64,000 nt of DNA from Spirulina sp. (GTDB taxonomy: Bacteria; Cyanobacteriota; Cyanobacteriia; Phormidesmidales; Phormidesmidaceae): the NCBI GenBank assembly GCA_044070495.1, contig JBIPSI010000014.1:1-64000 (forward strand), given 5' to 3'. A program made the translations under genes and the position numbers. The notes beneath the pieces are model-generated. The model saw nothing but the letters and a program-made list of their open reading frames with translations, was not told where the DNA came from and made no database searches. This document shows positions 3,104 through 59,779 of the stretch, one piece after another. The number at the start of each line of letters is the position of its first letter. Positions within the stretch are counted from its first letter, which is position 1.

Positions 3104-3232
3104 AGCGCACCTCTAAGCACAGTTAGGATGTCCTATTGTTTCATGATGAGTGGGGTTGTGCGGCTAGACAATGGTCGAATATTGGCGTTGCCGGGGCACG
3201 TCAGATGGGGGTTGAAGGTGGGGATAAGCTGG

Positions 3233-5197: not shown

Positions 5198-5210
5198 GGG
5201 CTGGTATCCG

Positions 5211-6671: not shown

Positions 6672-6726
6672 AGGATCATGTCCTCCGCTGATGGACTGAG
6701 ATTGGGGGCAGGACTAGGGAAATGGG

Positions 6727-7119
6727 CTACGGAATTTGCACAGTGAACTGCCCCGGATTGAGGATAGAAATCACCCCGGCCCAGGCACACATGCATTTGC
6801 TGCTGTTGTTCAAAGCGGGAAAGGTACCCAGCAACACCGTGGGCGATCCTGGTGCCCAGGGGGCCACCGTCACCGGAATGCAGGGCATGGGGGTGAGGAC
6901 TCCAAGGGCCGCCGCCGTTGCCGCCGCCACCGTGGGATTGGCTATGGACGTACACATCCCGAAGGGCAGAATGTTGACCATCGGGGCAAAATCCATAATG
7001 CTCGCAGCCAGTGGCCCCCCAGCCATCGTCGGTGGCCCCTTGGGAATCACCATCAACGCACTAGGCGCTACCCCAAAGGAACATTGCAACGTTGCTCCCA
7101 TCACCACCTGTATGCCCAT
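6727..7119 (-). CDS. DUF4280 PAAR-like spike-tip protein
   Basis: GATLQCSFG...NILPFGMC...PMPCIP...W.PG...SKCMCAWAGVISI. Confidence 0.9.
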   Translation of the reverse strand: MGIQVVMGATLQCSFGVAPSALMVIPKGPPTMAGGPLAASIMDFAPMVNILPFGMCTSIANPTVAAATAAALGVLTPMPCIPVTVAPWAPGSPTVLLGTFPALNNSSKCMCAWAGVISILNPGQFTVQIP

Positions 7120-7204
7120 CGTTAATTACCCTCGGTTTTGGTGGGCGGGGAAACCCCACCCCTACGGTTGGTTGGATTTGGCCTATCCCCTATCCCCTAA
7201 TTCC

Positions 7205-40049: not shown

Positions 40050-41165
40050 ATGATTCCATGCTTTCCCGCCATCAACGACACCACCCTGCGCGATGGGGAG
40101 CAAGCGGCGGGGATCGCCTTTGGCCTAGCGGAAAAGGTGGCCATTGCCCAGGGGTTAGATGCCCTGGGGGTGCAGGAACTAGAGGTGGGCATCCCGGCCA
40201 TGGGGCAGGGGGAGGCCCAGGCCATTCGGGCCATCGTTGATCTGGGGTTAAAGGCCCAACTGCTGGGCTGGAACCGGGCCGTGCTGTCCGACATCCAGGC
40301 GTCCATCCACTGCGGTCTACAGCGGGTTCACATTTCCGTACCGGTTTCGGAGATTCAGGTGCAGGTCAAGTATCAGGGGCAGTGGGCAGTAGTGCTGGAT
40401 CGCCTGCGGGAGGCCATTACCTTTGCGCGGGATCACGGTCTGGAGGTGAGTGTGGGTGGAGAAGATAGCTCCCGTGCCGACGCGACTACGCTGTTGGAGG
40501 TGGCCCAGCAAGCCCAGGACTGGGGAGCCTTTCGCTTTCGGTTCTGCGATACCGTAGGCATCCTCGACCCCTTTACCACCTACGACCGTGTTAAGGCCTT
40601 GGTCGAAGGGCTCAGTATTCCGGTGGAAATGCACACCCACAACGATTTGGGTCTAGCCACCGCCAATGCCCTAGCGGGGGTGCGGGCGGGGGCGACCTCG
40701 GTGAATACCACAGTAAACGGGCTAGGGGAACGGGCGGGCAATGCGGCCCTAGAGGAGGTGGTGATGGCGCTCAAGCATCTCTATGGCCTGAAAACCGGGC
40801 TGCAAACCCAGCATTTCCTAGCCATCTCCCGGTATGTCGCCAAGGCCGCCAACTGTGCCATCCCCCCCTGGAAGGCCGTGGTGGGAGATAACGCCTTTGC
40901 CCACGAGGCGGGACTCCATGCCCACGGGGTTTTGCACAACCCCAGCACCTACGAACCCTTTGATCCCAGCGAAGTGGGCCGCCAGCGGAGTTTGGTGGTG
41001 GGCAAACATTCCGGGCGTCATCTCATTCAGTATGTCCTCCATGGTCAAGGCGTTCACCTAGAGGCCGATCACACCCAAGCCGTCCTGAATCAGGTGCGGG
41101 ATCGGGCCACGACCCTCAAACGCAGCCTCTCGGTGGAGGAATTGCTGGATTTGGTCAACCCCTGA
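40050..41165 (+). CDS. nifV: Homocitrate synthase
   Basis: [55 protein letters not shown]; followed by nifT. Confidence 0.92.
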
Positions 41166-41959: not shown

Positions 41960-44737
41960 TCATGGGGCCGACCGCACCACCAGGCTACCCAGATCCACCA
42001 GGCCAGATTGGTCGGGCAGAATTTCAAACTCGATGGGGGCAGAGTCGCGCAGGCGAATTTCGTAGCGGCCTGGGCCAAGTCCGACTAGCGCAAACCGCCC
42101 TACTCGATTGGTAAAAAAGCCCTGGGCAGGCCAAGTCGCATCCGACAAAGAGACCACCTCACCGCCCTGAAGCCCCAGGGGTTCGCCGTTGCCATCCACC
42201 AGTACGCCTCGCACAAAGACCGTGGCGTCGGTGCCTGCCAAAATTAGCGTGCCGCTGCGATAGCTGGGCCACACCACCCATTCGCTGGGGCCAAGGTCGT
42301 AGCCGAGAGGCGCTTCTAGAGCTTCTAACCGCAGACGAGACACATAGTAGGGCTGGAGGTCGGGAATCACCGCTGGGCCAAAGGCATTCACCACCGCTCC
42401 ATAGCCACTACTGGAGGGGTTGACCCCAATTTGCTGCCCCCGCCAGCGGTCGCGAGGCACCACCAGGACAAAGCTATTGGTGACGGGACGAGACCAGCCA
42501 AAGCGGCCATCGGCAAACACGAGGGCGGTGCCAAAGGTGAGCCGGGTGGCGTGGGTGGTGGCGGTGGCATCTGAGGCATTGAAGGATCCATCCCAGGCTT
42601 GGCTGAGTTTGAAATCAAAACGATAGTCGGTGTAGCTCATTTCGCCCAAAACGCCGTGCTGATCACCATTCTGGTTGAGGTTCAGCGACCAGCCCGTGGC
42701 CATTAGGGGTTGATCGGGGCTGCGCCGCCACTGCAATTGATTCCCGGCGCGGCTGGTGTTGCTGAGGTTGGTATTCAGCGCCAGGGACTGCCGCCGTGCT
42801 GGCAATAGCCAAGACAGGCCCAAAAAGACCCGCACCTCCTCCTGGCTTTGGGTGGTGCGGCTATAGTTGGCGTTGAGGCTGCCGCTGAGACCGCTACTGA
42901 GGGTTTGGGAGAGGCCTAGGTTGAGGCTGTAGGTGTTGGGCACGGTGCGGCCAAAGCTGTAGCTGCCGCCCAGATTGAGGCGGGCACTGTCAAACAGGCG
43001 TTGGCTGTAGGCGGCGGATAGCTGCAACCAATCCTGGCTGGGGGTAAGGCTGGTGAGGGTAGTGAAGCGATCATCGCGATATTCCGCCGTTACCCGCAGC
43101 GACCGTTGGGCCAGGTCTTGGGCCTTGGTGGGTCGTTCATACTGCACCCGTGCGGCCATGCCCACCCCCACCTCTCCCCGATGGCTGAGGGCCACATCCC
43201 AGCCCCAGTTGCCCAGGGCCGAAGCCCAAATGCCGTCGGCCTCCACCATTTGAAACGAGGGCGTGGCCTGGAGGTAGCCGCCCAGGGTGAGGGTGCGAGT
43301 AGCTCCCCAGCGATGGGCTAGGGCCAGTTGGGGCTGGTTCCAATCGTATTGGCGCTGCCCTTGCACCGTGCCCGACGGAAAACCCAGATTGTAGGAAAAC
43401 TGCTGTAGACCAGGGGCCAGCAGGTTCCCGGCTAGGGCGGTGGTAAAGTCGAGCCGCTGCACTTGGCCCAGGTCGTCGGTAATGATTAGTTGAATATCGT
43501 TGGAACCCGTCGTTAGCACGAGGTTGCGGATATCCTGGGGGCCAGCCTGAAGCTGAAGCTGCTGCACCCGCACGCCATTGATGTAAATCTCTACCTGGGA
43601 GGGGCGTTCTAGGAAAAAGGTAAATTCCCCGGTGGGGCGGGTGATGCGGTAGGGCTGCAAGCTAAAGTTGCGCGACACCGAAATGCCCCCCAAGGGCACC
43701 AGCGATTGAAACGCCCCACTCACCGGAATGATGACATCCCCCGCGATGTAGCGCAGGGCATTGGCCGGATCATCCCGCACCAGCCGCACATCTCGCCGCT
43801 GAACACCGGGACTGCCCCCCTCCAGCACATCGGCCTGTCCCTCCAGCACCCAGCCCGCCACATTCAGCGCCCCATCCAAGGACAACCGGAGCGGTTGCCG
43901 TCCGGTTGGCTCCTGCCCCGCCCAGAGGATATCGTTACCACCCAAGACATTCACATAGCCGCTGATGGTGCTGATGGGCAGGGCATTGGCCGCCTCTGGG
44001 GGCACCCCCAGCGCATCCACCACATTGGTGCGCCGCAGGGCCGCAGGCACCGTCAGGTACAGCGCCAGTTGGCTTTGGTCGAAAATGGCAGTCAGGCCCA
44101 CCTGCTGAAGCAACCCCAGGCTCAAAAACCCCGCCTCGTCCACGCTGGCCTCTAACTGGGCTTGGAGGTCGGGCTGCAACAGGTCGCGGGTTTGATCCAG
44201 CACCGGAGCCGCCTGCACTAGGCTGGCCCGCCCGCCGGAAATCACTACAATGGCCTGCCCCCGCCGCTGATCGTTAATCCAAAAGGGCACCGGAATGCTC
44301 TGATCCCGTGGTCGAGGTCGCCCAAAGATCTGCTCGAATAATGCGTCATCCAACGCGGGATTCGGCTGGGTGCCCTCAGGGTTATCAGGACTGGCGGGAG
44401 CCTCTAAATCTTGGGTTTCAATGGTTTGGGTTTCAACGTTCTGGGCTTCAGGGGGCTGAGTTTCAGGGTTAGGGGGAGTTGCTGGGTCTGGGGAATTTTC
44501 TAATTCTGAAGGTTCTAATTCTGAAGGAGTTTGTGATTCTGGGGAAACCTGTGATAGTGGGGATTGGCCATCACCCCCAGCCCCTCTCCCCAAGGGAGAG
44601 GGGAGCCGGAAGGCGGTTACGTCAAAGTCCCTCTCCCTGTGGGAGAGAGATTTAGGGTGAGGGCTAGGAGTAGCGGCGGCTGGCCCTGGACAACCCAGCA
44701 CGAATACCATCGCCATTGCGACCCATCGGTAAGCCAT
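41960..44737 (-). CDS. Outer-membrane usher (PapC/FimD-like)
   Basis: Signal peptide; RRDVRLVRDDP...AGD, GGISVSRNF, PSQVEIYING, LLAPGLQQFSY, C-terminal FTNRVGRF...L.PG.Y; last gene of pilin-pilin-chaperone operon. Confidence 0.88.
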   Translation of the reverse strand: MAYRWVAMAMVFVLGCPGPAAATPSPHPKSLSHRERDFDVTAFRLPSPLGRGAGGDGQSPLSQVSPESQTPSELEPSELENSPDPATPPNPETQPPEAQNVETQTIETQDLEAPASPDNPEGTQPNPALDDALFEQIFGRPRPRDQSIPVPFWINDQRRGQAIVVISGGRASLVQAAPVLDQTRDLLQPDLQAQLEASVDEAGFLSLGLLQQVGLTAIFDQSQLALYLTVPAALRRTNVVDALGVPPEAANALPISTISGYVNVLGGNDILWAGQEPTGRQPLRLSLDGALNVAGWVLEGQADVLEGGSPGVQRRDVRLVRDDPANALRYIAGDVIIPVSGAFQSLVPLGGISVSRNFSLQPYRITRPTGEFTFFLERPSQVEIYINGVRVQQLQLQAGPQDIRNLVLTTGSNDIQLIITDDLGQVQRLDFTTALAGNLLAPGLQQFSYNLGFPSGTVQGQRQYDWNQPQLALAHRWGATRTLTLGGYLQATPSFQMVEADGIWASALGNWGWDVALSHRGEVGVGMAARVQYERPTKAQDLAQRSLRVTAEYRDDRFTTLTSLTPSQDWLQLSAAYSQRLFDSARLNLGGSYSFGRTVPNTYSLNLGLSQTLSSGLSGSLNANYSRTTQSQEEVRVFLGLSWLLPARRQSLALNTNLSNTSRAGNQLQWRRSPDQPLMATGWSLNLNQNGDQHGVLGEMSYTDYRFDFKLSQAWDGSFNASDATATTHATRLTFGTALVFADGRFGWSRPVTNSFVLVVPRDRWRGQQIGVNPSSSGYGAVVNAFGPAVIPDLQPYYVSRLRLEALEAPLGYDLGPSEWVVWPSYRSGTLILAGTDATVFVRGVLVDGNGEPLGLQGGEVVSLSDATWPAQGFFTNRVGRFALVGLGPGRYEIRLRDSAPIEFEILPDQSGLVDLGSLVVRSAP
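44567..44664. repeat. Dispersed palindromic repeat inserted in frame in the usher 5' end
   Basis: CCATCACCCCCAGCCCCTCTCCC...GGGTGAGGGC; same family as intergenic 54711-54798. Confidence 0.8.
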
Positions 44738-44832
44738 GACTTAACCAAAGTCTGGGAATCTCGCCCCAGGCAGGAAAACTGAGCTAATTATGGCAAGAAG
44801 TCCCAAGACTTCAGCCAATGCCTGGGGTCAAC

Positions 44833-45618
44833 TTAACGGAGTTCAAAGCTGGCGGTGACGGGGCCAATGGGCAAGCCTTCCGGCCAGGGCATCACAAACT
44901 GGCGTTGGTGTTGGGCTAGCACGTTTTCGCCGTTAATCCCGGTGAGTTGGTCGGGTCGCAGGATGAGGCTGGCCCCAGGCTGGTTCACGGGCGCTAGGGT
45001 GAGGGTAAGCCCCGACAGCAGTTGGTGGGCGGTGCCTTGGTTGTCAAACTCCAGCAGCAGCTTATCCTGACCGTCGATGCGCTGGTGGCTGGCTTGGCGA
45101 ATCACCACGTTCGGTTGTGCCCCTGGGGGCGTCACATACAGCGCCGCCACATAGCGATAGAGGGCATTGATGCGAACGGTAACGCCAGTAGGGGGTGCCT
45201 CTGGCCCACCAAGGTTGATGGGCAGTTGTTCGGTAATCAGCCGAAAAGCTTGCTCCACCTCCACATTGGGTTCCCCTAGCCAAGTCACGCGCACGGTTTG
45301 CACCTGGCCGGGTTGCAACAAAATCTGCGGCGGATACACCACAAAATCATCCTCGGCATCGTTCTGGGTTTCGTTGCCCAAGGGATCCATCTGGCGATCC
45401 GTCACCCGCACCTCAATGGCCACGGGTTCATCCCCGGTGCTGCGTACCTGAAACGACCCCGCCGCCCCACTCCCCCCGGCCTGTAGCACCAGGCGAGAAG
45501 GGGTGAGCTGGTAGCTGGCATCCGCCCAGGCCGGAGCCGCCATCAACACCCCAGCCCCCACCAACACCGAGGCAACACCGCCCACACAGGATAGGCCAAC
45601 ATAGGGTAGGGATTTCAT
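44833..45618 (-). CDS. Periplasmic pilus chaperone (PapD-like)
   Basis: Signal peptide; VVYPPQILLQPGQVQTVRV, FRLITEQLP, NQGTAH. Confidence 0.88.
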   Translation of the reverse strand: MKSLPYVGLSCVGGVASVLVGAGVLMAAPAWADASYQLTPSRLVLQAGGSGAAGSFQVRSTGDEPVAIEVRVTDRQMDPLGNETQNDAEDDFVVYPPQILLQPGQVQTVRVTWLGEPNVEVEQAFRLITEQLPINLGGPEAPPTGVTVRINALYRYVAALYVTPPGAQPNVVIRQASHQRIDGQDKLLLEFDNQGTAHQLLSGLTLTLAPVNQPGASLILRPDQLTGINGENVLAQHQRQFVMPWPEGLPIGPVTASFELR

Positions 45619-45705
45619 CACAGCCTCCCGGCATTTACCAAAACAATCGAATGAGCCAACAAAGATAAGTCGTCAACCAAGCCCTCGCGGCCCTCACCCC
45701 GTTGA

Positions 45706-46981: not shown

Positions 46982-47416
46982 GGTGTGTCTCCTAAAAGGT
47001 GATGAAGTGAACTAGGGACGGAAATATCAGAAATTCTGGGAGACTAAGCCTTGCGGCTTAGGGCGTATCCAGAGGGTAGAGGGGTATCGTTTTAGCGTCT
47101 TTGGGCGATGTGGTGAAGGCCATTGAAGCTATTTTTGATGAGGGCTTGGCGGATTAGATACGCTCCGTTTTTGTGATCAAGCTCTTTGTGATATCAACTG
47201 CGATACCTTTTTTCTGATGTTTTTACTTTAGAAGCTTTGACCTGTATGAACCATGTTGTGATTACTTATTTTTAATATTTTTGTTTTTCAAGCCTATATG
47301 TTTCCATCGGTTTTCACGGTTATTATTAGATCAGGATTCTTTTAACAAAGATTAATATTTTGATATTATTGAATCTGTATTAAGGCTTTATGAATAAATT
47401 TACAAAAGCAAAAAAC

Positions 47417-47453
47417 TATCCCTTTTTAGTAGGGAATATCCCCTTTTAGTAGG
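47417..47453. promoter_or_regulatory. Tandem 17-bp direct repeat in AT-rich pilus upstream region (candidate regulator sites)
   Basis: TATCCCTTTTTAGTAGG at 47417 and TATCCCCTTTTAGTAGG at 47437 (20-bp period). Confidence 0.55.
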
Positions 47454-47628
47454 AGGTATAGAGAACCCATGGATGATAGTTATTGTCTGGAGAATACAGC
47501 GCTGTCCGACCTGCTTAGGTCAGGTCTTGGGCTTTCTCTGAGGCTTGTGGGATCTTTTTATTGTAGGTTTTTTACAGAAAAGAGCATCGATTTATAAGGA
47601 ATTCATGGTTGTGATTAAGAGGATTTAC

Positions 47629-48093
47629 TTAATCCATGGGATCAGGTTCTAAGTCAACGAATTCATCGCTCTTGATCATGTGCGGGAAGCTTTCGTCTTG
47701 ACGCTGAATATACTGAATCATGCTGATATCGTAGGTTCGATGGTGTACGCTGATGCAATGGGCAATCCCATGCACCATTTCGGTGGTCACCTCCAGATCA
47801 TGGGACTCTGCCCTGAGGCGTAGATTAAAAATTTTCGACAGAATAACCTCATGATTGTCGGTATGGGAGCGAAGCTCTGGATACTCGTATTGGCGCATCA
47901 GCAATTCTTCGATTTCTGAATGATCGAGTACGCACACAAATAGGGCATCTAGGGTAGATTGAATCGCGGTGCCAGACTCGTTGAGCATGATGTCTTGATA
48001 GAGCCTCCTGAGGAGGGTGAGGATTTCCTCGTGTTTGCTGTCAATTTGCGGGTGGTGAGTCTTAACGTCATCACGCCAGTATGCCAAAGCCAT
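47629..48093 (-). CDS. Bacteriohemerythrin
   Basis: W....TH.PQIDSKH, HSEIEE (HxxxE), HTDNH (HxxxH), HHRTYD (HxxxxD); start ATG 48093. Confidence 0.88.
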   Translation of the reverse strand: MALAYWRDDVKTHHPQIDSKHEEILTLLRRLYQDIMLNESGTAIQSTLDALFVCVLDHSEIEELLMRQYEYPELRSHTDNHEVILSKIFNLRLRAESHDLEVTTEMVHGIAHCISVHHRTYDISMIQYIQRQDESFPHMIKSDEFVDLEPDPMD

Positions 48094-48121
48094 GGTCTCA
48101 GCCTGGAGAATGCTTACCTCC

Positions 48122-48187
48122 AACGTAGCGGTGGGATAGGCTGGCAACCATCAGGGATTGGCTGAGTTTTGTGGGGAGGGAACCTGA
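48122..48187 (-). promoter_or_regulatory. Shared promoter motif copy A (hemerythrin)
   Basis: Minus strand TCAGG-ttccctccccac-AAAACTCAG-ccaatc-CCTGAT-N22-TACGTT. Confidence 0.75.
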
Positions 48188-48422
48188 GATAGGGAGTCAC
48201 GGTTCTGAGCCGACTCAACGGTGCAGCGGCAGGAGCTATGGATATTACGGTTGTTGAAGAATTGGTGGGTTGCTCTGTAATCTAGGCACTCTAAACCTAG
48301 GGTTGTCCTAGGCCCAAAGACCATAGATCGTAGCTAGAAGCCAGCGGTTTGGGGCTGGACTAGGGCGGCGGCGGGCAGGGTGCAGACCATCGTTAGAACA
48401 ACATAGGGAAAAGGGTAGGCAT

Positions 48423-50540
48423 GTGGCCATGACCCCCAACAAACGTTCGGTATCAGATTTAGGACAACAGGCCCTTGAGATCGGGGCAACGCCCTTGGAC
48501 AGTGGGGCTAAGGAAGCCTTGCAAGAGGAGGCCATGCTGCGGCTCTTTTTTGACCTTCCCTTCCTGGGCATGGTGATTTACGACCCCCACCAGCAAACCT
48601 GGGTGCGGTTTAACGAGCGCTTTTGCACCATGCTGGGCTATACCACCACCGAAATGCTGGGTTTGTCTTGGCGGCAGGTGACCCATCCCCACGATGTGCA
48701 AACGGGGGTGACAAAAATTCAGCAGGTGCTGGCGGGGGAAACCGAGGGCTATACCCGCGAGAAACGGTTTTTGCACAAGGATGGGTTCTTCGTCTATGCC
48801 CTGGTGGATGTGAAGGGCATTCGAGATTCGGAGAACCGAGTGCAGTATTTGATGGTTACGGTGCAAGACATCACGCCCTATCGGCAGGTGATCAAGGACT
48901 TGCGCCACAGTGAAGAACGCTTTCGGGCCACCTTTGAGCAGGCGGCGGTGGGCATTGCCCATGTGGCCCCCGATGGAACGTGGCTGTGGGTGAACCAAAC
49001 CCTGTGCGACCTGGTGGGCTATAGCCGCGAGGAGTTGCAACGGCTCACCTTCCAAGACATTACCCACCCTGAGGATCTAGACACCGACTTAGCCTACGTG
49101 CAGGAGATGCTGAACCGACAGCGCACCTCCTACACCATGGAAAAGCGCTACATTCGCAAGGATGGCCGCATTGTTTGGATTAACCTGACGGTGTCCCTAG
49201 TGTGGAACAACCAGAACCAGCCCGACTATTTTATTTCGGTGATTCAGGATATTTCCCAGGCCAAGCAAAATCAGGAAACTCTGCGCCACTATACCCAGCG
49301 CCTCCAGGGGCTACACACCATGGATCGGGCGATTTTGTCGAAGTTTCGGCCTCCCGCCATGGCCCAGGCGGCCCTCACCCTGCTGCATCAACTGCTGGGC
49401 TGCGAGCGGAGCCTAGTGGCGCTGTTCCACCCCCAATCCGCCCAGGCCGAAGTGGTGGCCGACACCGCCGATGCTGATCATCGCCCCGCCGAAACCCGCT
49501 GGCCCCTGGAGGATTTTGTCTACGGCCAGGGTTTCGATCAGCCCTGCTGGCGCATCGATGACCTCACCACCCTCGAGTCACCCGTTCCCCTGCTACAAGG
49601 GCTACATGGCTGCCATCAGCGGTCGGTATTAACGGTGCCGCTGCGGGTGGATAACCGGGTGATTGGCGAAATTACGCTGTCAGACCCCCAGGTGGCCTAC
49701 TTCCAGGCCGACCACGAAGCCATGGCCCAGGAAACCGCCAACCACCTGGCCATTGCCCTGCAAAACGCCTGTCTATTCGAGCAGGTGCAGGCCGACCGTC
49801 AGCGGTTGCAAGAGTTATCCACTCAGCTTTTGGATGCCCAGGAGTCGGAACGCCGCTGGCTGGCCCAAGAACTCCACGACGAAGTGGGTCAAGCCCTCAC
49901 CGCCGTTAAGCTCAACCTCCAGCGGTTGCAACGGTTAATGGCTTCTGATTCTGACTCGGCCCAGGCCATCCTAGAGGACGGGCTACACCTGGCCGATGGA
50001 GCCTTGCAGCAGGTGCGAAACCTCTCCCTCGATCTGCGCCCTTCCCTGCTGGACGATCTGGGCTTGGTGCCTGCCCTACGCTGGTATGTGAGCCGCCACG
50101 CCGACCGCACGGGGTTGGCCGAAACCCTGATCTGCGATCTCCAGATGCCGCCGCTACCCGCCGCCACCGAAACCGCCTGTTTCCGAATTGTCCAGGAAGC
50201 CCTGACCAACATTGCCCGCCACGCCCAGGCCCGCCAAGCGACCGTGCGGTTAGCGAGATCGGATCAATATCTGCGTCTTACCATTCAAGATGACGGGGTA
50301 GGTTTTGATTCACAGGCGGCGAACCACCGCCAAGGCGGCACCAGCCTCGGTCTGTTGGGCATGGCAGAACGGGCACAACACATTGGGGGACAATTAAGCA
50401 TCACCGCACGCCCCGGACAGGGCACCACGGTAGAACTCCAGGCTCCCCTAGTGGAGGGAGACCGCCTTTCCCCAGAAACCTGTTGCGCGATTTTCTCTCA
50501 GGACAGCCATGGCCCCCATTACCCTGATCATTGCCGATAA
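48423..50540 (+). CDS. PAS-PAS-GAF sensor histidine kinase (HisKA_3)
   Basis: Two PAS/PAC domains (THPHD, THPED, EKR...KDG), GAF, ERRWLAQELHDEVGQ, EALTNIARHA, DDGVGF, GLLGMAER. Confidence 0.93.
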   Translation: MAMTPNKRSVSDLGQQALEIGATPLDSGAKEALQEEAMLRLFFDLPFLGMVIYDPHQQTWVRFNERFCTMLGYTTTEMLGLSWRQVTHPHDVQTGVTKIQQVLAGETEGYTREKRFLHKDGFFVYALVDVKGIRDSENRVQYLMVTVQDITPYRQVIKDLRHSEERFRATFEQAAVGIAHVAPDGTWLWVNQTLCDLVGYSREELQRLTFQDITHPEDLDTDLAYVQEMLNRQRTSYTMEKRYIRKDGRIVWINLTVSLVWNNQNQPDYFISVIQDISQAKQNQETLRHYTQRLQGLHTMDRAILSKFRPPAMAQAALTLLHQLLGCERSLVALFHPQSAQAEVVADTADADHRPAETRWPLEDFVYGQGFDQPCWRIDDLTTLESPVPLLQGLHGCHQRSVLTVPLRVDNRVIGEITLSDPQVAYFQADHEAMAQETANHLAIALQNACLFEQVQADRQRLQELSTQLLDAQESERRWLAQELHDEVGQALTAVKLNLQRLQRLMASDSDSAQAILEDGLHLADGALQQVRNLSLDLRPSLLDDLGLVPALRWYVSRHADRTGLAETLICDLQMPPLPAATETACFRIVQEALTNIARHAQARQATVRLARSDQYLRLTIQDDGVGFDSQAANHRQGGTSLGLLGMAERAQHIGGQLSITARPGQGTTVELQAPLVEGDRLSPETCCAIFSQDSHGPHYPDHCR

Positions 50541-51159
50541 TCACACCCTGGTTCGGGCCGGATTTCGGGCCTTGGCGGAGGAATTGCCCGGAGTGGAGGT
50601 GGTAGGCGAGGCCAACAATGGCCGCGAAGCCCTCGCCCTGGTGGAATCCCTCAAGCCGCAACTGGTGCTGATGGATATTGCCATGCCCGAAATGAATGGC
50701 CTAGAGGCCACCGCCCGCATCAGCCACGATTTTCCCCAGGTGCGGGTGCTGATTATTTCCATGCACGCCAACGAAGAATACGTCTACCAAGCCCTGCGTT
50801 CGGGGGCGGCGGGCTACCTGCTTAAAGACAGCGGCCTAGAGGAACTTGATCTGGCCGTTCGCGCCCTTGCCAAGGGCGAAACCTACCTCAGCCCCGCTGT
50901 TTCCAAATACGTGGTGAACGACTACGTGCGTCGCCTAGAGTCTGAAGACACCCCCCTCGACCACATCACCCCCCGTCAACGGGAAATTTTGCAGCTCATT
51001 GTGGAGGGCAAAAGCACCAAGGACATTGCCGATATCCTCTACATCAGCGCCAAAACCGTGGAAACCCACCGCGCCCAACTGATGGATCGCCTCGACATCC
51101 ACGACATCGCCGGACTGGTGCGCTACGCCATCCGCACCGGGCTAGTGGTGCTGGAGTAG
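50509..51159 (+). CDS. NarL/FixJ-family response regulator
   Basis: REC (LMDIAMP, GYLLK) plus LuxR HTH (TPRQREIL...ISAKTVETHR). Confidence 0.95.
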   Translation: MAPITLIIADNHTLVRAGFRALAEELPGVEVVGEANNGREALALVESLKPQLVLMDIAMPEMNGLEATARISHDFPQVRVLIISMHANEEYVYQALRSGAAGYLLKDSGLEELDLAVRALAKGETYLSPAVSKYVVNDYVRRLESEDTPLDHITPRQREILQLIVEGKSTKDIADILYISAKTVETHRAQLMDRLDIHDIAGLVRYAIRTGLVVLE

Positions 51160-51179
51160 GTTTCCCAGATTCACACAAT

Positions 51180-51245
51180 TCAGGGATTTAACCCTCAAAA
51201 CTCAGGATCTTGCTGATGCTCTCCTATCCCCTGTGGCGTTAGGTT
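51180..51245 (+). promoter_or_regulatory. Shared promoter motif copy B
   Basis: TCAGG-gatttaaccctc-AAAACTCAG-gatctt-GCTGAT-N22-TAGGTT. Confidence 0.75.
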
Positions 51246-51323
51246 GAGGATAGCCCTGGTAGGGACTCGCCATCATCCCAGATTGCCCCCTACCTCTGGA
51301 CTCGCAGGCTAGGAGGACACCCT

Positions 51324-51797
51324 ATGACCACTCCCAAAGATCCCCCCTCATCGGTGGACTATGTGCTGGCCCGGATGGCCCCAGAGGTGGCCGAAAGCTT
51401 TAGCCAGACCCAGTACGAGGCCCTGCGGGAAGCCTTGGTGCCCCGTCGCCATGGGGTGAATCTTCGGCTGTCGGTGCCCTGCCTGCAATCGCGCCTGTAC
51501 CTGGTGGTGCTGGCCGGAACCGATGTTCGATCCGCCCACCGCCGAAGCCTGGACACCGCCCACCATCCCCTCTGGACGCCGATGAATATGGTGGCCATGG
51601 CGGGGATTATGGGGGTGGGTATGTTGGCCCTGCTGGCGCTGCTGCAACTGGGGCAGGCTAATGTTGCAGGTCGCCTAGATCCCAAAACCGCTCCGGCGGC
51701 CATTCCTTTTAAAGAAGATCAGCGCAGTTGCGAAGCCAGTGGGCGCGTCTGGCAGGACGACACTTGCCTCGACTATGCCCACGACCCCACCTTTTAG
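51324..51797 (+). CDS. Hypothetical single-TM protein with C-terminal Cys pair
   Basis: AGGAGG RBS; RHGVNLRLSVP...YLVVLAG; TM; CEASGRVWQDDTC. Confidence 0.8.
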   Translation: MTTPKDPPSSVDYVLARMAPEVAESFSQTQYEALREALVPRRHGVNLRLSVPCLQSRLYLVVLAGTDVRSAHRRSLDTAHHPLWTPMNMVAMAGIMGVGMLALLALLQLGQANVAGRLDPKTAPAAIPFKEDQRSCEASGRVWQDDTCLDYAHDPTF

Positions 51798-51841
51798 GAT
51801 CGTACGGGAAATACGGTCATCGTCTGACCTAACCGCAGATC

Positions 51842-51907
51842 TCAGGGTGACTTCTCCGTAAAATCCACCAAAGCCTGATACCCAGTTCCCAGGGATAGAC
51901 CTATGGT
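51842..51907 (+). promoter_or_regulatory. Shared promoter motif copy C (cyanobacteriochrome kinase)
   Basis: TCAGG-gtgacttctccg-TAAAATCCA-ccaaag-CCTGAT-N22-TATGGT. Confidence 0.65.
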
Positions 51908-52028
51908 GAAGGTGGAAGGAACGCCTAAATCAATTCTCCTCCCATTCACCGACCGACCATCCAATCCCAGGGAAAGGCTCACCGTCCTCGTCCTGGAACC
52001 AGGGGCACCTAGATGTTGCGAGGCCGCT

Positions 52029-53804
52029 ATGAGTACTATCACCGATGAGACTCACCCTACCCCGACGCTTCAGCCCATGGAGGCATCTCCTCCGGCCCGG
52101 CCCCCCCTATCCCACCATCAATCCTTGCTGTGGACGCTGCGATTGGTGCGACGCATTCGACGATCCCTCGATTTAGATGTGGTGCTCCAAACCACGGTTT
52201 CTGAGGTGCGGCGCTGGCTGCGGGTGGATCGGGTGTTAGTGCTGGAATTTCAATCCGACTGGGGCGGCGTGGTGCTGGTGGAAGATCATCTACCCGATTG
52301 TCAAACCTTGCAGGGGCGGCGCATTTACGATGACTGCTTCGCCGAGAAATGGGTGAAGGTCTATGCCCAGGGTCGCATCCAAGCCGTAGACGACATTGAA
52401 ACAGCGGGGTTTTCGCCCTGTCATCAAGACCTGCTGCGGCAGTTGCAGGTGCGGGCCAACCTGGTGGTTCCCCTGCGGGTGCGGGGGCAATTGTGGGGGC
52501 TGCTGGTGGCCCAACACTGTACGGCCCCTCGGCCTTGGCTCAGCGAAGAACTGCAAGTGGTCAAGCAGTTGGCCGACCAAGTGGGCCTTGCCATCGAACA
52601 GTCGGAACTCTACCACCAGACCCAAATTGCCCTACTTCAGCAAACCCAGGCCGCCACCCAATGGAAGGAACAGTCGGCACGGGCGCGGGAAAAGCACCTT
52701 GCCAGCCTAGGCACCCTGGCCGGGGGGCTGGCCCACGATTTAGGCGAAATTTTAACGCCCATTTTTCTGGCGGCGGAAATGCTGAAGCAGCCCACCCTCA
52801 ACGAACAACAGCAGCAGCTTTGGCTCAACCGGATTAAATCTAGCGCCCACCGGGGGGCCAGCTTAATTGACCAAGTGCTGGCCTTTGCCCAGGGGTTAGA
52901 GGGCCAACGCCACTCCCTTCAGTTGGCCTACCTACTGGGGGAACTGGTGCAAACCCTAGCCGAAACCGAACCCGAATCCCTGCTGATTACCTCCCGGCTG
53001 CAAGGCACCCGCCTCTGGCCCGTGGAGGCCGATGCCACCCACCTCAACCAGGTTTTTACCAACCTGTGCCGTAATGCCTGCGAAGCCATGCCCCAGGGCG
53101 GACAACTGCACCTCAGTGCCCATAATGTCTGGTGGCGGGGCGATCCGACCTATCCCCAGCGATCCCCTGGCCCCTACGTGGTGGTCACCCTTAGCGATAC
53201 CGGGGAAGGCATGGCCCCAGAGGTCTATGACCGCTGCCTAGACCCCTTCTTTACCACCCGCGCCCTAGAGGGGCATTCGGGGCTGGGGCTATCCACCGCC
53301 CTAGGATTGGTGCAACTCTACGGTGGCTGGCTGAATCTGCAAAGCCAGTCCCAGATTGGCACCACCGTTGAGGTCTACCTACCGGCCCAGGTTCCCGATC
53401 TCGATATTCCCCTGCTGCAACGCCGTTTGGCCAACCTACCTACCCAGCCTAGGACTATCCTGCTGCTGCTGGCCGAGGCCGAGGATCGGGAACTGCTGCG
53501 GGCTATGATCGCCAGCGGATCCCATACGGTGCTGACCACCGAGGATGGAGCCGAAGCCCTAACCTGTGTGATTGAGCACCAAGCAACCTTGGGGGCCGTG
53601 GTGTTAGATCTCGCCCTGCCCACCTTCAACGGCGGGGCCATGGCCCGTCGCCTCGAACAAATGATCCCCCAAGTTCCCATCCTGACCCTAGACAGCCGCA
53701 GCCAGATCTCTCCAGTGCCCGATCCAGCGCGCGCCTCAACCATGGCAATGCAGCCTCTTTTCTTGGCTCCGCTGCTGGCCCAATTGGCGCAGGTTCTGTC
53801 CTAA
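52029..53804 (+). CDS. DXCF-type cyanobacteriochrome GAF histidine kinase with degenerate receiver domain
   Basis: GAF with DDCF and SPCH cysteines, LQVRANLVVP, LWGLLVA; AHDL H-box, NLCRNA, DTGEGM, PFFTT, GLGLS; start set at ATG 52029. Confidence 0.88.
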   Translation: MSTITDETHPTPTLQPMEASPPARPPLSHHQSLLWTLRLVRRIRRSLDLDVVLQTTVSEVRRWLRVDRVLVLEFQSDWGGVVLVEDHLPDCQTLQGRRIYDDCFAEKWVKVYAQGRIQAVDDIETAGFSPCHQDLLRQLQVRANLVVPLRVRGQLWGLLVAQHCTAPRPWLSEELQVVKQLADQVGLAIEQSELYHQTQIALLQQTQAATQWKEQSARAREKHLASLGTLAGGLAHDLGEILTPIFLAAEMLKQPTLNEQQQQLWLNRIKSSAHRGASLIDQVLAFAQGLEGQRHSLQLAYLLGELVQTLAETEPESLLITSRLQGTRLWPVEADATHLNQVFTNLCRNACEAMPQGGQLHLSAHNVWWRGDPTYPQRSPGPYVVVTLSDTGEGMAPEVYDRCLDPFFTTRALEGHSGLGLSTALGLVQLYGGWLNLQSQSQIGTTVEVYLPAQVPDLDIPLLQRRLANLPTQPRTILLLLAEAEDRELLRAMIASGSHTVLTTEDGAEALTCVIEHQATLGAVVLDLALPTFNGGAMARRLEQMIPQVPILTLDSRSQISPVPDPARASTMAMQPLFLAPLLAQLAQVLS

Positions 53805-56294: not shown

Positions 56295-56321
56295 TAGATT
56301 GACTAGATTGACTAGATTGAC
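56295..56321. repeat. 9-bp tandem repeat x3 (TAGATTGAC)
   Basis: Exact triplication between convergent stop codons. Confidence 0.8.
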
Positions 56322-57514
56322 TAGGCAATGCTGCCCCGTTTGCGGGCTTCCTTGGCGGAAATGCCGATATTTTTGAGGCCAGCCCGCATCATCTCCCGTT
56401 CCAGCAGCGCAAAGAAGCGGCGACGATCTCCCCCCCGCACCACCGCCTGGTTGTGGGCTTCGGCTAGGGCCACCGGATAGCCATAGCCCTTCTGCACCTG
56501 GGCCAGCACCATCCGCAGGGCGAGGTCACAGCCTGCGGCATCGGCCATCACCCACTCCGGCATCTCCACCCGCGCCACCTCTGCCCCCACATGGAGGTAG
56601 CAAAAATAGATGTGTTGATCGCCGTAGAGACCGAGGATGCTGGCGGAACTGCGCCAAAAGGGGCTGCGCTGCCCTGGTTCTAGGGCGGTGGCCCAAAAGG
56701 TGGCATCCCGCAGGGGCATAAATCCGCCGCAGGGGGCCTTTTCAGACTGGCCCCGGCAGTGCTGGGCGCAGTGGGGTTCTGCAAAGGGGCAGGCGGGCAA
56801 ACGCAAAAAGTTCAGCCCCTCGCTGCTACGGGAGGCACTGAGATAGCCCACCAGGGGAATACCCAGCCGCCGCAGCCGTTCCCAGGCCGCCAAAATCGGG
56901 GGCAGCAGGTGATCTCGGCCTTCGGCGGGGATAGCTTCGAGGAACCAGTAAATCAGCGATCCATCGACCATGGCCAGGGTGGGCGGGGCTTTGTCTAGGG
57001 AAGATTCCGCTGCAACCGAGGCTCCCAACTCGGCCAACACCTCCGCCTCCGCCACCGTGCGCCGATGGCCCATCCATTCCTCGGTGCTAATGCCCCAGGG
57101 GCGAGACTGGTAGAGATCCTCTGGGCGGTAGATCACCTCTGGCAGGCTATCCAGCAACGGAAAGCGGCCCTGGCCGTAGTGCAGCACCACCCGCCCCACA
57201 TTGATGAGATAACAGTAAGCAATGTCGTGGTGGCTAGGGGAAATTTGCGATCCATCGGTGGCCAGCACCGTATGGGCGGCGGTCAAGGGTTCTAGGGCTA
57301 TCCGGGTGGTCAGCGGTTCTACGGGCAGCGCTGCCGTGAAGGCGAGGTGTTCGGCGTAGTCCTGGTGTCGGGCCACCCAATCCTCCTGGTGTTCGGTGGC
57401 GATGGTCATCCACCGCTGCGCTGTGCGGATTCTGGCCTGGGCCGCCTCCGCCTCCTGGGCCAAGTGCTGGCTCATGCCCTGCATCTGTTGGGCCAACTGC
57501 GCTAAATCCAGCAT
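56321..57514 (-). CDS. NurA-domain nuclease
   Basis: ATDGSQ, MVDGSL, EVARVE, GYGYPVALAEAHNQAVV. Confidence 0.88.
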   Translation of the reverse strand: MLDLAQLAQQMQGMSQHLAQEAEAAQARIRTAQRWMTIATEHQEDWVARHQDYAEHLAFTAALPVEPLTTRIALEPLTAAHTVLATDGSQISPSHHDIAYCYLINVGRVVLHYGQGRFPLLDSLPEVIYRPEDLYQSRPWGISTEEWMGHRRTVAEAEVLAELGASVAAESSLDKAPPTLAMVDGSLIYWFLEAIPAEGRDHLLPPILAAWERLRRLGIPLVGYLSASRSSEGLNFLRLPACPFAEPHCAQHCRGQSEKAPCGGFMPLRDATFWATALEPGQRSPFWRSSASILGLYGDQHIYFCYLHVGAEVARVEMPEWVMADAAGCDLALRMVLAQVQKGYGYPVALAEAHNQAVVRGGDRRRFFALLEREMMRAGLKNIGISAKEARKRGSIA

Positions 57515-57559
57515 TGAGATCACCTCAGGGAAGACCCAAGAACACCCATCTTTCCCATC

Positions 57560-59779
57560 CTACCCCTGGGAATCCGGGGAGTCTGCCCTGGTCTGAAGGC
57601 TCTGAAGCAGGTGAGTAATGGTCTCGGACACCGGAGGATCCATCGACCCATCCACAATCCTCAGCCCCGACGGCACCGACCCAGTCATCGCAGATAGGCT
57701 CACCCAAGGGATCTGGATCAACTCTGGGCATTGGGCCACCCAGTCCCAGTCTGTCTCGGTAAAGCCTAAGCCATCCACCAGCACAATGGCCTGGGGTTGC
57801 CACACCCGACACAACAGCCGCGCCTGGGCCAAGTCATTGGCCTGCACCAGCCGACACCGCTGGCTTTGGAGGGTGGTTCGCCACACCTCCGGTAGCGCCA
57901 CCTGGGCCTTGGTGAGGGCAGATTGCCCTGGGTAGGTCAGCACCAACAGGGTAAGCGGGGTCGCAGGGGCTTTTGGGGTGGAATTTTGGGGGGTGGAATC
58001 TTGGGGAGTCACGCGTCCCTGATTGGCCGGATCTGGGCCTGGGGGATAATCGATGGCCGATGGCGAGGCTGTCAACGACTGGTTTGCCGATGGCTGGGCT
58101 GTCAATGACTGGGCTGTCGATGACTGGGCTGTCGATGACTGGTTTGCCGATGACTGGTTTGTCGATGACTGGTTTGCCGATGACTGGGCTGTCGATAGCG
58201 GGGCGAGGGCTTGGGCGAGGGACTTGGGGTTATCTAGCACCAGAAGCACCGCCTGGGGGGCCACCTGGGCCAAAACTGCGCCCGGATTCGCAGGGATCTC
58301 CCCCAGGGACGCACCATGCAGCAGCACGAGGGCCGGAGTCAATCGCTGGGCCATGTCCACCGCCTCCTGCCAATGGGTGGCCAGTAGCAAGCGGGTTTCC
58401 CCGGCGACCATTTGTGCCTGGGTATGCACCAACCATTCGCCATCCGCGCTCACCAGCAGCACAAGCCTTTCTGGGCCAATTCCTCCTGGGTCAATTCCCG
58501 CTGGGCCGTCCTGGGCTAGATCACCCGCCGCCGCCGATGTTTGATCCACAGGATCTGACGGATCTTCTTCCATCAGCCCTGGCTCGTCCCCAGCCTCCCT
58601 TCCTCCCCGCCAGGGCAGCAGAATCGTAATCTGGTAGCCATCCAGGGGAGAACAAAAGCCCACCAAGTCGCCCCCCTGCTGCTGACATAGCCGTCGGGCT
58701 AGGGCCAACCCCAGGGTTTCCAGGCCGTCCACCTCGGCCCCTAGGGTCACCGTCCAGGGGGGAGACCCAGGGCTAGGGGAGAGGCGGTCATCGGTCTCTG
58801 GGGTGGCCCGCAGCGTCAGCCCAACCCAGGATCCCCAGGACTCTAGGGTCAGGGTTTGGGGAATGGCCCCTCGATGCAGGAGATAGCCCAAAACGCTGTA
58901 GATGCTCTGCTGAAGCCGCAGTCGATCCACCCGCAGCAATGGCACTTGGGGGGGCAACTGGCAGCGAAAGGTGTCCATCCAAGGCGGTGGGGCGGCGGCA
59001 TCGGGCAGCCAACTGGTGAGAAATGTGGGCAGTAGGGTTTCCGTCAGAGCGTTGAGATCCACCGGAACCCTGTCTAAATCCATCTGTCCCGCCTCTAAGC
59101 GCATCCAGTCCACCAGTTGATTCACTAGGCGGATCAGCTTGCGAATGGCTCGCCGCATCAGCCCCGCATAGCGAGACTGGCGGTCGTTCAGGTGGCCAAC
59201 CCGATGATCCAACAGTAGGGTAGATAGCCCTAACAGGGAGGTCAGCGGCGTTTTGAGGGCGTGGCTAATGGTCATCACCCACTGCTGTTCCTGCACCGAC
59301 GTGGCGGACAAGGGGGCAACCGCCGGACTCAAGGATCCCTGGGCCAGCAGATCCGCCCCATTCAGTACCCCCAAGTACCGCCCTTCGACATCCACCACTA
59401 CCCAGCAGGGGGCCGACGAATGGGTGATCAGACGAATGAGATCGGCGGGCGTCGTGTGGGCCACTAGGGGCACCACGGGTTCAAGCCAGGCTAGGCAATC
59501 TTGGAGGTAAACCGCTGGGGGATCGCCCCCTTGTCCTTGCTGGCGCGACCACAACAGCCCCAACGCCAAACAGCCTTGGGGGCGATGTTGATCGTCGATT
59601 ACAACAATGTGGCTGGGCCAGGGCAAGGGGGCCGACCCTAGACAAAACTGGCTCAGATCGGCCACCACGGTTTGAATGGCCACCGTTGGCAGGTAGCTGG
59701 GTATGGGGATCATCCAGGGGACTAATCCTGCCGTTGAGGCGGTGGCAGATGGGGGCCAAACATGGGGCAAAAACGACAT
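57560..59779 (-). CDS. Degenerate hybrid histidine-kinase-like protein divergent from kaiA
   Basis: CBS-like N-terminus, ISHALKTPLTSLLGLS HisKA, eroded HATPase boxes, receiver-like segments, pentapeptide repeat tract. Confidence 0.75.
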   Translation of the reverse strand: MSFLPHVWPPSATASTAGLVPWMIPIPSYLPTVAIQTVVADLSQFCLGSAPLPWPSHIVVIDDQHRPQGCLALGLLWSRQQGQGGDPPAVYLQDCLAWLEPVVPLVAHTTPADLIRLITHSSAPCWVVVDVEGRYLGVLNGADLLAQGSLSPAVAPLSATSVQEQQWVMTISHALKTPLTSLLGLSTLLLDHRVGHLNDRQSRYAGLMRRAIRKLIRLVNQLVDWMRLEAGQMDLDRVPVDLNALTETLLPTFLTSWLPDAAAPPPWMDTFRCQLPPQVPLLRVDRLRLQQSIYSVLGYLLHRGAIPQTLTLESWGSWVGLTLRATPETDDRLSPSPGSPPWTVTLGAEVDGLETLGLALARRLCQQQGGDLVGFCSPLDGYQITILLPWRGGREAGDEPGLMEEDPSDPVDQTSAAAGDLAQDGPAGIDPGGIGPERLVLLVSADGEWLVHTQAQMVAGETRLLLATHWQEAVDMAQRLTPALVLLHGASLGEIPANPGAVLAQVAPQAVLLVLDNPKSLAQALAPLSTAQSSANQSSTNQSSANQSSTAQSSTAQSLTAQPSANQSLTASPSAIDYPPGPDPANQGRVTPQDSTPQNSTPKAPATPLTLLVLTYPGQSALTKAQVALPEVWRTTLQSQRCRLVQANDLAQARLLCRVWQPQAIVLVDGLGFTETDWDWVAQCPELIQIPWVSLSAMTGSVPSGLRIVDGSMDPPVSETITHLLQSLQTRADSPDSQG
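58057..58197 (-). repeat. In-frame 15-bp tandem repeat (about 9-10 units, S[ST][AT][AN]Q)
   Basis: GATGACTGG[GT][CT]TG[TC]C units; encodes STAQSSANQSSTNQ... Confidence 0.85.

Follow-up and report, generated by a model that had tools for sequence, protein, structure and literature searches.

A conserved tripartite promoter box next to a NarL-type regulator gene in a Spirulina genome

A sensor kinase gene and a NarL-type response regulator gene lie side by side in the window analysed here (64 kb in all, the first 64,000 nucleotides of contig JBIPSI010000014.1 from Spirulina sp.), and an earlier note had drawn attention to three similarly spaced sequence elements in front of genes around this pair. 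Do these elements belong to one regulon, which protein reads them, and which genes would it control? The sequence comparisons reported below suggest that the boxes probably serve as combined operators and promoters of a small two-component regulon specific to a single filamentous cyanobacterial lineage, with the adjacent NarL-type regulator as their putative binder. The regulon is read here as well supported, new and ordinary in kind.

Genes and boxes of the locus

The kinase HK1 (48423..50540, plus strand) is composed of PAS-PAS-GAF-HisKA_3-HATPase_c domains according to Pfam (PF07730, HisKA_3, 57.9 bits), and the 3' end of its gene overlaps by 32 nt the gene of its presumed partner, a response regulator with REC and GerE (LuxR/NarL-type HTH) domains (50509..51159, plus strand; PF00072 94.3 bits and PF00196 66.5 bits, both over cut-off). 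Both this domain content and the HisKA_3 kinase encoded alongside are those of NarL/FixJ-type systems, and the closest solved chains are VraR (E 1e-43), NarL (3e-35) and DevR (3c3w, 5e-27), while none of the NCBIfam equivalogs MctR, NarL, UvrY/GacA and MadR is reached (the best being MctR with 199.6 against 300, and NarL with 144.9 against 250). Directly after the regulator gene, in the loci examined, comes a gene for a 157-aa protein (51324..51797, plus strand) with one predicted membrane span and no Pfam or NCBIfam match, whose orthologs are present in 32 of 61 genomes searched and appear in the Atlas in 'hypothetical protein' clusters only. The hybrid kinase HK2 (52029..53804, plus strand) follows, with a GAF domain (87.6 bits) and then HisKA-HATPase_c-REC in Pfam. 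On the other side, and on the minus strand, lies a hemerythrin-domain gene (47629..48093; 154 aa), which scores above the TIGR02481 cut-off (64 bits vs 51.75) and below that of the narrower NF033749 (66 vs 84), its long form reaching 25.0 vs 25.3 in Pfam PF01814.

The later start codons that the earlier note had preferred for the two outer genes are both backed by ortholog evidence. For the ATG at 48093, the alignment to TIGR02481 already begins at residue 5 of the short protein, and the 61% identical ortholog in G075 has an open frame of only 155 aa; for 52029, the HK2 ortholog in G005 matches from residue 1 onwards at 90% identity, with a stop codon in frame further upstream.

The exact pattern TCAGG-N27-SCTGAT has three matches in the window, whereas 100 shuffles average 0.10 and never reach three: copy A at 48150-48187 (minus strand), before the hemerythrin gene, copy B at 51180-51217 and copy C at 51842..51879 (both plus strand). 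As had been described, each is followed exactly 22 nt later by a -10-like TANNNT hexamer, namely TACGTT (48122..48127), TAGGTT (51240..51245) and TATGGT (51902..51907), with predicted starts at ~48115, ~51252 and ~51914. What did not survive is the reading of the unit as an inverted repeat of two 5-bp arms with 27 nt between them. Once relatives are compared, three half-sites emerge, TCAGG-N17-TCAGS-N5-SCTGA-T-N22-TAnnnT (in fuller form (a)aC-TCAGG, N17, (aa)aC-TCAGS, a T-rich N5, SCTGA-T, 22 nt or, in some relatives, 21, then TAnnnT), that is, a 15-bp palindrome TCAGS-N5-SCTGA (H2-N5-H3) and an extra distal half-site (H1) lying 22 bp, or two helical turns, upstream of the like-oriented half-site.

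Copy A thus resolves into H1 TCAGG at 48183..48187 (a column conserved in 33 sites from relatives) and the palindrome TCAGC-CAATC-CCTGA plus T at 48150..48165, and copy B into H1 TCAGG at 51180..51184, beginning 21 nt past the regulator stop codon, and TCAGG-ATCTT-GCTGA plus T at 51202..51217. The AAAACTCAG that A and B have in common at equal offset, correctly seen earlier, is the middle half-site. Copy C keeps H1 TCAGG (51842-51846) and H3 CCTGAT (51874-51879) around a degenerate middle half-site, TCCAC in place of TCAGG (51864-51868), and its hexamer includes the ATG of the long ORF call; this same degenerate form is conserved in G005 (16.0 bits), and canonical sites stand at the orthologous place in G022 and G020. 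Chaperone-usher genes and a single homocitrate-synthase-like gene near the locus are without the box.

How well can these sites be told from the rest of the 5.3-Mb genome? The pattern of the earlier note has nine matches at eight places (reversed control, 0). One of the five places outside the window, C62:8861-8899, shows the full architecture, with TAGGGT at +22; the match on C71 is intergenic and lacks the hexamer, and those on C16, C24 and C40 fall within long ORFs. The matrix scan that the earlier note had proposed upholds A and B and demotes C. With a first matrix of 13 sites, all from other genomes, copies B and A rank first and second among all genome positions, and with a second of 33 sites, none from this genome, the top three are copy B (37.9 bits), copy A (35.5) and C62 (30.4), followed by 16.3 for the next position and 13.0 for the maximum of the reversed-genome control. 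Information in this element is concentrated, as in a footprint, in the half-sites (1.3-2.0 bits per column), most spacer columns holding 0.0-0.3 bits. Copy C reaches 7.9 bits, a score equalled or exceeded at 14 genome positions vs 5 in the control. The ortholog of copy A in G075 scores 35.5 bits.

The box and the regulator gene across genomes

Within the genus, the strict pattern has 39 matches in 20 of 53 genomes (reversed-pattern control, 1). Beyond the family, it is found in 18 other genomes of 400 vs control matches in 9, which is near chance, and the system is therefore narrow in range. A regulator ortholog (79-94% identity) is present in 16 of the 53 genus genomes; all 16 have the pattern, and 15 have it within ~250 nt past the regulator stop codon (the exception being G031), although physical linkage to the regulator gene, which holds for most sites, makes part of this co-occurrence trivial, and the genomes are kin, so that such counts overstate independence. 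In another genus, G296 has a 65%-identical ortholog with a 31.9-bit site directly past its stop codon and a different downstream gene, and in a third, G109 has sites of 46.4 and 27.8 bits beside an 81% ortholog. Three genera thus show the site behind the regulator gene, also with a different gene downstream.

The unlinked target on C62, a kinase with CBS and cyanobacteriochrome domains (CBS-CBCR), carries a site of at least 22 bits in 13 of 14 regulator-holding genomes, and the fourteenth (G005) keeps palindrome and hexamer with the spacing shifted by 1 nt. Among regulator-less genomes, the site is kept in only three of nine informative rows; G024 shows a remnant with mutations in H2, in H3 and in the hexamer, and rows having neither regulator nor site occupy at least three distinct positions on the target-gene tree. 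Upstream of the 157-aa gene, H1 and H3 are gone in the regulator-less G006 and G016, and in G021 and G023, also regulator-less, TCAGG is changed to TTAGG and TACGGT to TGCGGT. Sites before conserved target genes are therefore eroded or gone in most genomes lacking the regulator, a natural series of regulator loss followed by box decay. The earlier proposal of a regulon around the PAS-GAF/NarL pair is supported by the conserved element, its fixed hexamer distance and its physical and phylogenetic tie to the REC-GerE regulator, copy C being its weak member.

Could a genuine operator be read by some other transcription factor (a paralogous NarL-type protein or an unrelated one), with the adjacent regulator as a linked passenger or itself a target? 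Two genomes speak for this: G018 (100% complete) and G073 (99% complete) keep perfect, high-scoring sites (40.5 and 38.9 bits), and neither has a regulator ortholog at E <= 1e-45. G018 retains the kinase ortholog, has an unrelated ORF at the regulator's place, and is sister to the regulator-holding G069 on the target-gene tree. These sites therefore reflect either a recent loss or another protein able to use the box, and linkage of most sites to the same locus could by itself yield the co-occurrence. Against it, the regulator is the only product of the five-gene stretch between hemerythrin and HK2 (both included) in which Pfam finds a DNA-binding domain, no second copy of it exists in this genome at E <= 1e-60, the site trails its gene across genera despite the changes downstream, and decay at the C62 target, in most regulator-less genomes, is seen at three or more positions on the tree. 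Another reader of the box is thus unlikely, and the adjacent regulator remains the preferred candidate.

Promoter geometry, mode of action and targets

In 32 unique strict sites from other genomes, the TANNNT hexamer (background frequency 0.75%) stands exactly 22 nt past CTGAT in 29, at 21 nt in two, and is absent in one. Computed from the hexamer, with the start taken 7 nt behind it, the palindrome is centred at ~-43 and the distal half-site lies at ~-70. The palindrome adjoins the -35 position, where the six bases vary among the sites of other genomes, and a search of 47900-52100 for a sigma-70 consensus promoter gave none. A -10-like TAnnnT at fixed operator distance combined with no conserved -35 hexamer is the layout of a class II activator-dependent sigma-70 promoter, in which the operator is centred at about -41.5 to -43.

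A mechanism can be proposed on this basis, in which the cytoplasmic PAS-PAS-GAF kinase HK1 would phosphorylate the adjacent regulator, and a regulator dimer would sit on the 15-bp palindrome, directly upstream of the -35 position, and recruit a sigma-70-type RNA polymerase (class-II-style activation), the distal half-site perhaps being taken by a further protomer or dimer. The missing -35 consensus, the usual mark of activator dependence, is the one ground on which activation is preferred over repression. A regulator that binds the box and represses, or acts in both ways, at a TAnnnT promoter active without it is less probable still than a different binder: with its extent from -72 to -36, the site could stand in the way of polymerase or mask an UP element, and promoters of relatives resembling that of the 157-aa gene have a further TCAGC immediately 3' of the hexamer, a position typical of repression, but the hexamer decays along with the box in regulator-less genomes, and no consensus sigma-70 promoter is detected. 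Very improbable is an origin in chance, in a dispersed repeat or mobile element, or in a transcribed RNA structure, even though copy C by itself is indistinguishable from background and the nine genome matches of the loose pattern come close to the composition expectation (~5, hand calculation), since the independent matrix recovers A, B and C62 alone far over control, spacers differ across 20 genomes in which half-sites and distances are kept, and the box is not a hairpin, the outer palindrome bases being non-complementary in 17 of 32 sites, with arms that do not covary, no Rfam match and no terminator-like tail.

For a regulon activated in this way, the predicted targets in this genome are the hemerythrin gene, the 157-aa membrane protein and HK2 (with its weakened box), together with an operon on C62 headed by the CBS-CBS-GAF-PAS kinase (gene order: CBS-CBCR kinase, REC-HATPase protein, pentapeptide protein); in relatives, a GAF-LOV hybrid kinase and a GGDEF-EAL protein would be added. 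Cyanobacteriochromes of the DXCF class have a GAF domain with a Cys-His bilin-attachment motif and an Asp-Xaa-Cys-Phe motif. By these motifs, HK2 (YDDCFAEKW and AGFSPCHQDLL) and the C62 kinase (IEDECFAKHW and AGLSPCHIDML) are both predicted members. Sensor kinases and a c-di-GMP enzyme make up the conserved targets, and the hemerythrin is a lineage-specific addition, with a box in three genomes only (this one, G075 and G073, the last with a distant homolog of the gene). The predicted targets are mainly photoreceptor kinases, and the oxygen/light module proposed in the earlier note thus overstated the oxygen side.

One sharp box ties an uncharacterised two-component pair to kinases of cyanobacteriochrome and LOV type and to a GGDEF-EAL protein, with a hemerythrin and an unknown membrane protein as further links. 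Two start codons are corrected by it as well, and its rarity (three strong sites in 5.3 Mb) is enough for a regulon to be defined from sequence only. To our knowledge, little is known about how the expression of photoreceptor kinases is controlled in cyanobacteria. As a tentative extension, HK1 and the regulator may form a 'sensor of sensors', setting through their private tripartite box the amount of a blue/green-light photoreceptor set (two DXCF cyanobacteriochrome kinases, a LOV hybrid kinase and a c-di-GMP enzyme, plus the O2-binding hemerythrin in some species). A second signal, possibly redox, O2 or a metabolite, would in that case gate light perception itself at the level of transcription in this group of cyanobacteria.

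Comparison with known systems

The pair resembles NarX-NarL, VraS-VraR/LiaS-LiaR and DevS-DevR in combining a REC-GerE regulator with an adjacent, overlapping HisKA_3 kinase gene, and shares with NarL/FixJ systems the use of short half-sites arranged as an inverted repeat; unlike in those systems, the sensor is a soluble PAS-PAS-GAF protein, and no NCBIfam equivalog fits. As far as we know, the half-site TCAGG and the 5-nt spacer differ from the NarL, LiaR/VraR and DosR boxes. In the DevS/DosT-DevR hypoxia system, a tandem-GAF haem kinase works with a DevR box placed before the hypoxia regulon; the sensor here is PAS-PAS-GAF. In class II activation by LuxR-type proteins, the lux box is centred near -42.5. 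The dyad operator described here similarly abuts or overlaps a weak -35 region at a fixed distance from the -10 element (its centre at about the same place when computed from the hexamer), but its regulator would be controlled by phosphorylation rather than by an autoinducer, and the distal half-site is an addition.

Among filamentous cyanobacteria, the dpxABC operon of Fremyella diplosiphon (a cyanobacteriochrome kinase, a single-domain receiver and a hybrid kinase), held by orders that include Nodosilineales, likewise groups DXCF-type cyanobacteriochrome kinases with further kinases and receivers (PMC13492139). Identity with dpxABC was rejected, as the gene order is unmatched both here (PAS-GAF kinase, NarL-type regulator, 157-aa protein, cyanobacteriochrome hybrid kinase) and on C62, and the available part of that description holds no promoter box or LuxR/NarL regulator, with 0 occurrences of 'LuxR' and 'NarL' (PMC13492139). 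A parallel for the tripartite layout comes from ComA of Bacillus subtilis, for which, in the portion of the source available, an inverted repeat and further recognition elements are needed for activation, implying more than one dimer per promoter (PMC4797271, citing Griffith and Grossman 2008). The regulator here, a tetrahelical-HTH protein like ComA, would likewise use an inverted repeat and an additional half-site, but the ComA extras follow the repeat on its downstream side after a 5-nt spacer, whereas the extra half-site here lies 22 bp upstream, and the sequences are unrelated (PMC4797271).

Three boxes around a kinase-regulator pair

The motif TCAGG-N27-SCTGAT occurs at the three positions described in the earlier note, all of them intergenic: copy A (48150-48187, minus strand) before a hemerythrin-domain gene, copy B (51180-51217, plus strand) before a gene whose 157-aa product belongs to no known family, and copy C (51842-51879, plus strand) before the gene of a GAF-HisKA-HATPase-REC hybrid kinase (HK2, 52029-53804, plus strand). 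By comparison, 100 shuffles that preserve dinucleotides averaged 0.10 matches, and not one gave as many as three. The -10-like hexamers TACGTT, TAGGTT and TATGGT do lie exactly 22 nt 3' of copies A, B and C, respectively, and the AAAACTCAG common to copies A and B corresponds to a half-site, H2, plus its A-rich lead. The later start codons preferred in the same note are also consistent with the promoter positions: with the hemerythrin gene begun at 48093 (154 aa), the match to the bacteriohemerythrin profile sets in at residue 5, and the ortholog in the relative G075 has an open frame of 155 aa; for HK2 (52029), the G005 ortholog shows 90% identity beginning at residue 1, with an in-frame stop and no other start upstream.

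The box-bearing genes flank a PAS-PAS-GAF-HisKA_3 sensor kinase (HK1, 48423-50540, plus strand) and a NarL-type REC-GerE regulator (50509-51159, plus strand); in this cluster of five genes, no other DNA-binding protein was found. As to autoregulation, no box facing HK1 was found: copy A is aimed at the hemerythrin gene, and its counterpart in G020 is directed at a LOV kinase. The locus had been placed next to nif and pilus genes: chaperone-usher genes (41960-45621) and a homocitrate-synthase-like ORF (40050-41165; HMGL-like and HCS_D2 domains) are indeed present, but neither carries a box, a scan of 42 long ORFs turned up no nif-like gene besides the latter, and no nifHDK was found in the window. 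Elsewhere in the window, two tandem copies of a unit of about 20 nt (CCC(T)TTTTAGTAGG-like) are found beyond the 3' end of the hemerythrin gene (47413-47460), a NurA-domain gene adjoins the gene of a 739-aa HisKA kinase on the minus strand (56321-59779; no box found there), and at 6-9 kb downstream from the locus come kaiA and kaiC (59994-60890 and 61416-62981; Pfam KaiA, KaiA_N and KaiC ATPase). What seems to be a portion of a gene cluster for an extracellular contractile injection system occupies 1133-9187, where eCIS_core, AAA plus winged-helix and Phage_base_V domains are encoded.

Box anatomy and occurrence

Aligning 33 sites from other genomes gave the consensus a.cTCAGG-(17)-aAacTCAGg-aTTT-cCTGATgg. 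Because the half-site columns are informative (1.3-2.0 bits) and most spacer columns are not (0.0-0.3 bits), the unit is a 15-bp palindrome (H2-N5-H3) accompanied by a distal half-site (H1) that has the orientation of H2 and lies 22 bp upstream of it. TANNNT, whose background frequency is 0.75%, follows CTGAT at exactly 22 nt in 29 of the 32 unique non-own sites and at 21 nt in two; the single site lacking it (locus L069) is probably a chance match. At the -35 position, the hexanucleotide differs among target classes (TGGAGC, TACGAC, TGGGTA and others), and a consensus sigma-70 promoter scan of 47900-52100 returned no site. A further TCAGC, absent from copy B, is conserved just after the -10, around the predicted start, in the relatives' promoters of the 157-aa gene (TACGGT-TGAATCAGCTGTTAGA; L043, L054, L063, L078, L082 and others), and may represent a fourth half-site or a conserved leader.

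A matrix built from 13 other-genome sites ranked copies B and A first and second across the whole 5.3-Mb genome. In the genome-wide scan proposed as a check, repeated with a 33-site matrix, B (37.9 bits), A (35.5 bits) and a site on another contig, C62:8898(-) (30.4 bits), came out on top, far over both the next match (16.3 bits) and the maximum of the reversed-genome control (13.0 bits). The C62 site has the complete architecture, including TAGGGT at +22, and precedes a three-gene operon for a CBS-CBS-GAF-PAS kinase, a REC-HATPase protein and a pentapeptide-repeat protein. Copy C, whose middle half-site H2 reads TCCAC, reaches only 7.9 bits, a score equalled or exceeded at 14 genome positions vs 5 in the control. 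Despite this low score, it is homologous to the relatives' sites: its degenerate form is kept in G005 (16.0 bits, with H1, H3 and TATGGT intact) and canonical sites lie between the same two genes in G022 and G020. Other loose-pattern matches were set aside as chance, those on C16, C24 and C40 located in ORFs and that on C71 intergenic but without a hexamer (-24 bits). The palindrome alone (TCAGS-N5-SCTGA) occurs 67 times in the genome vs 10 in the reversed control, a difference from which nothing is concluded because this control loses the codon-driven CAG/CTG richness. Only five palindromes have a hexamer at 22-23 nt: A, B, C62, a hairpin-like one, and a weak extra candidate outside the window (C14:103187, minus strand), in which TCAGC-N5-CCTGA has TAGGCT 23 nt downstream and TCAGG only 11 nt, not 22, upstream.

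Scanning whole genomes of the genus with the exact pattern TCAGG-N17-TCAGS-N5-SCTGA gave 39 matches in 20 of 53 genomes, which are kin, and a single match to the reversed pattern. Class-wide, 18 other genomes of 400 carry it vs 9 with control matches, and outside the family it is near chance; the exception is G109, which holds the regulator and canonical-looking sites. A contig scan with the full 66-nt pattern served solely to name the group of relatives: among the matches listed (80 of 122 stretches), nine belong to Nodosilinea, Leptolyngbya or Shackletoniella and one to Scytonema, the others being probably mostly chance or unrelated repeats. Orthologous loci, located through the 157-aa protein and then viewed in larger regions, have the box at equivalent places. 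The order HK1, regulator, 157-aa gene, HK2 is kept in G022 and G020; the region fetched from G017 stops after the regulator, and in G035, G001, G009 and G031 the locus is partly covered by short contigs. In the closest regulator-holding relative (L062, G005:C28), the 157-aa gene is lost, and HK2 is preceded by a B-like site (41.6 bits) and, 250 nt away from it, a C-like site (16.0 bits).

Sensory proteins as putative targets

Besides the 157-aa protein, for which family and atlas searches found no function, HK2 and the operon of the CBS-CBS-GAF-PAS (CBS-CBCR) kinase, boxes precede genes for a hybrid kinase (G020, G061, G031) that combines GAF-LOV (GRNCRFLQ) with two receivers and an Hpt domain, a GGDEF-EAL protein and a small OST-HTH protein (both in G109), and a GAF protein of G020 read as GGDEF-type without a domain scan. 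Both GAF kinases of the own genome carry Asp-Xaa-Cys-Phe and Cys-His motifs, which we take to be marks of DXCF cyanobacteriochromes. The conserved output would thus be a set of sensory proteins, mostly photoreceptor-like. Of the oxygen/light module envisaged earlier, the oxygen side is a local addition, hemerythrin being a target only in the own genome, in G075 (61% identity, 35.5 bits) and in G073 (a 27%-identical homolog, 24.6 bits). The idea that the HK1 GAF domain binds bilin was dropped, as the G020 ortholog lacks the Cys-His. With 1117 aa vs 705 aa here, that ortholog (L045, 11030-14383) carries additional PAS domains at its N terminus, so the kinase sensor part varies within the genus.

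Candidate reader of the box

Orthologs of the regulator (79-94% identity) occur in 16 of the 53 genus genomes, all 16 of which carry the pattern, 15 of them within about 250 nt after the regulator stop codon. Across the family, 17 of 161 genomes hold orthologs at E <= 1e-85. Fifteen belong to the genus (own genome included); the other two are G109, with sites of 46.4 and 27.8 bits beside the regulator, and G296, where the regulator is 65% identical and its stop is immediately followed by a 31.9-bit site although the next gene differs. Physical linkage renders this co-occurrence partly trivial, and targets persisting without the regulator were therefore examined. Upstream of the 157-aa gene in regulator-less genomes, H1 and H3 are gone from G006 and G016, and G021 and G023 have TTAGG for TCAGG and TGCGGT for TACGGT (the G021 site was in the matrix training set, so that its score is inflated). 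The CBS-CBCR kinase, encoded on another contig in the own genome, has a site of at least 22 bits in 13 of 14 regulator-holding genomes, and the fourteenth, G005, keeps palindrome and hexamer with the spacing changed by 1 nt. Among nine informative regulator-less rows (G011, with just 197 nt of upstream DNA, was left out), the site is absent in six, including G024 with a remnant mutated in H2, H3 and hexamer, and rows with neither regulator nor site fall at three or more separate places in the target-gene tree.

These patterns make it rather probable that the phosphorylated regulator activates in class-II style: it would bind the palindrome as a dimer, with an additional protomer or dimer occupying H1. 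With a start about 7 nt behind the hexamer, H3 would end at -36, the palindrome would centre near -43 and H1 would lie near -70. That another factor reads the box is unlikely; its main evidence is that G018 and G073 keep the CBS-CBCR site without the regulator, as does G075 (only 82% complete). In G018, a recent loss of the regulator may explain the intact site, since this genome and regulator-holding G069 are close sisters. It retains the HK1 ortholog (L057, G018:C2, 526-1500) and, where the regulator would be expected, has an unrelated ORF of 260 aa on the opposite strand, the box and CBS-CBCR kinase downstream being intact. Repression or dual control at the same sites is less probable still. 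Chance, a repeat or an RNA element is very improbable, a hairpin or RNA reading being unlikely because 17 of 32 sites lack complementarity in the outer bases of the palindrome, no Rfam family matched 47400-52400 at E <= 1, and no terminator tail fits; the three terminator-like matches in 47900-52100 all lie inside the hemerythrin gene and are fewer than expected from shuffles.

We regard this as a new regulon of a known kind, a view that is well supported. No paper on the regulator, the box or the regulon was found in the open-access literature searched, and no NCBIfam equivalog was reached; the closest solved relatives of the regulator are VraR, NarL and DevR. The dpxABC operon, as far as its accessible description goes (PMC13492139), is arranged unlike the present locus, and its gene order rules it out as the identity of the latter. 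Within the regulator's protein class, the nearest precedent for an inverted repeat with extra half-sites is, from the accessible part of the source, ComA (PMC4797271).
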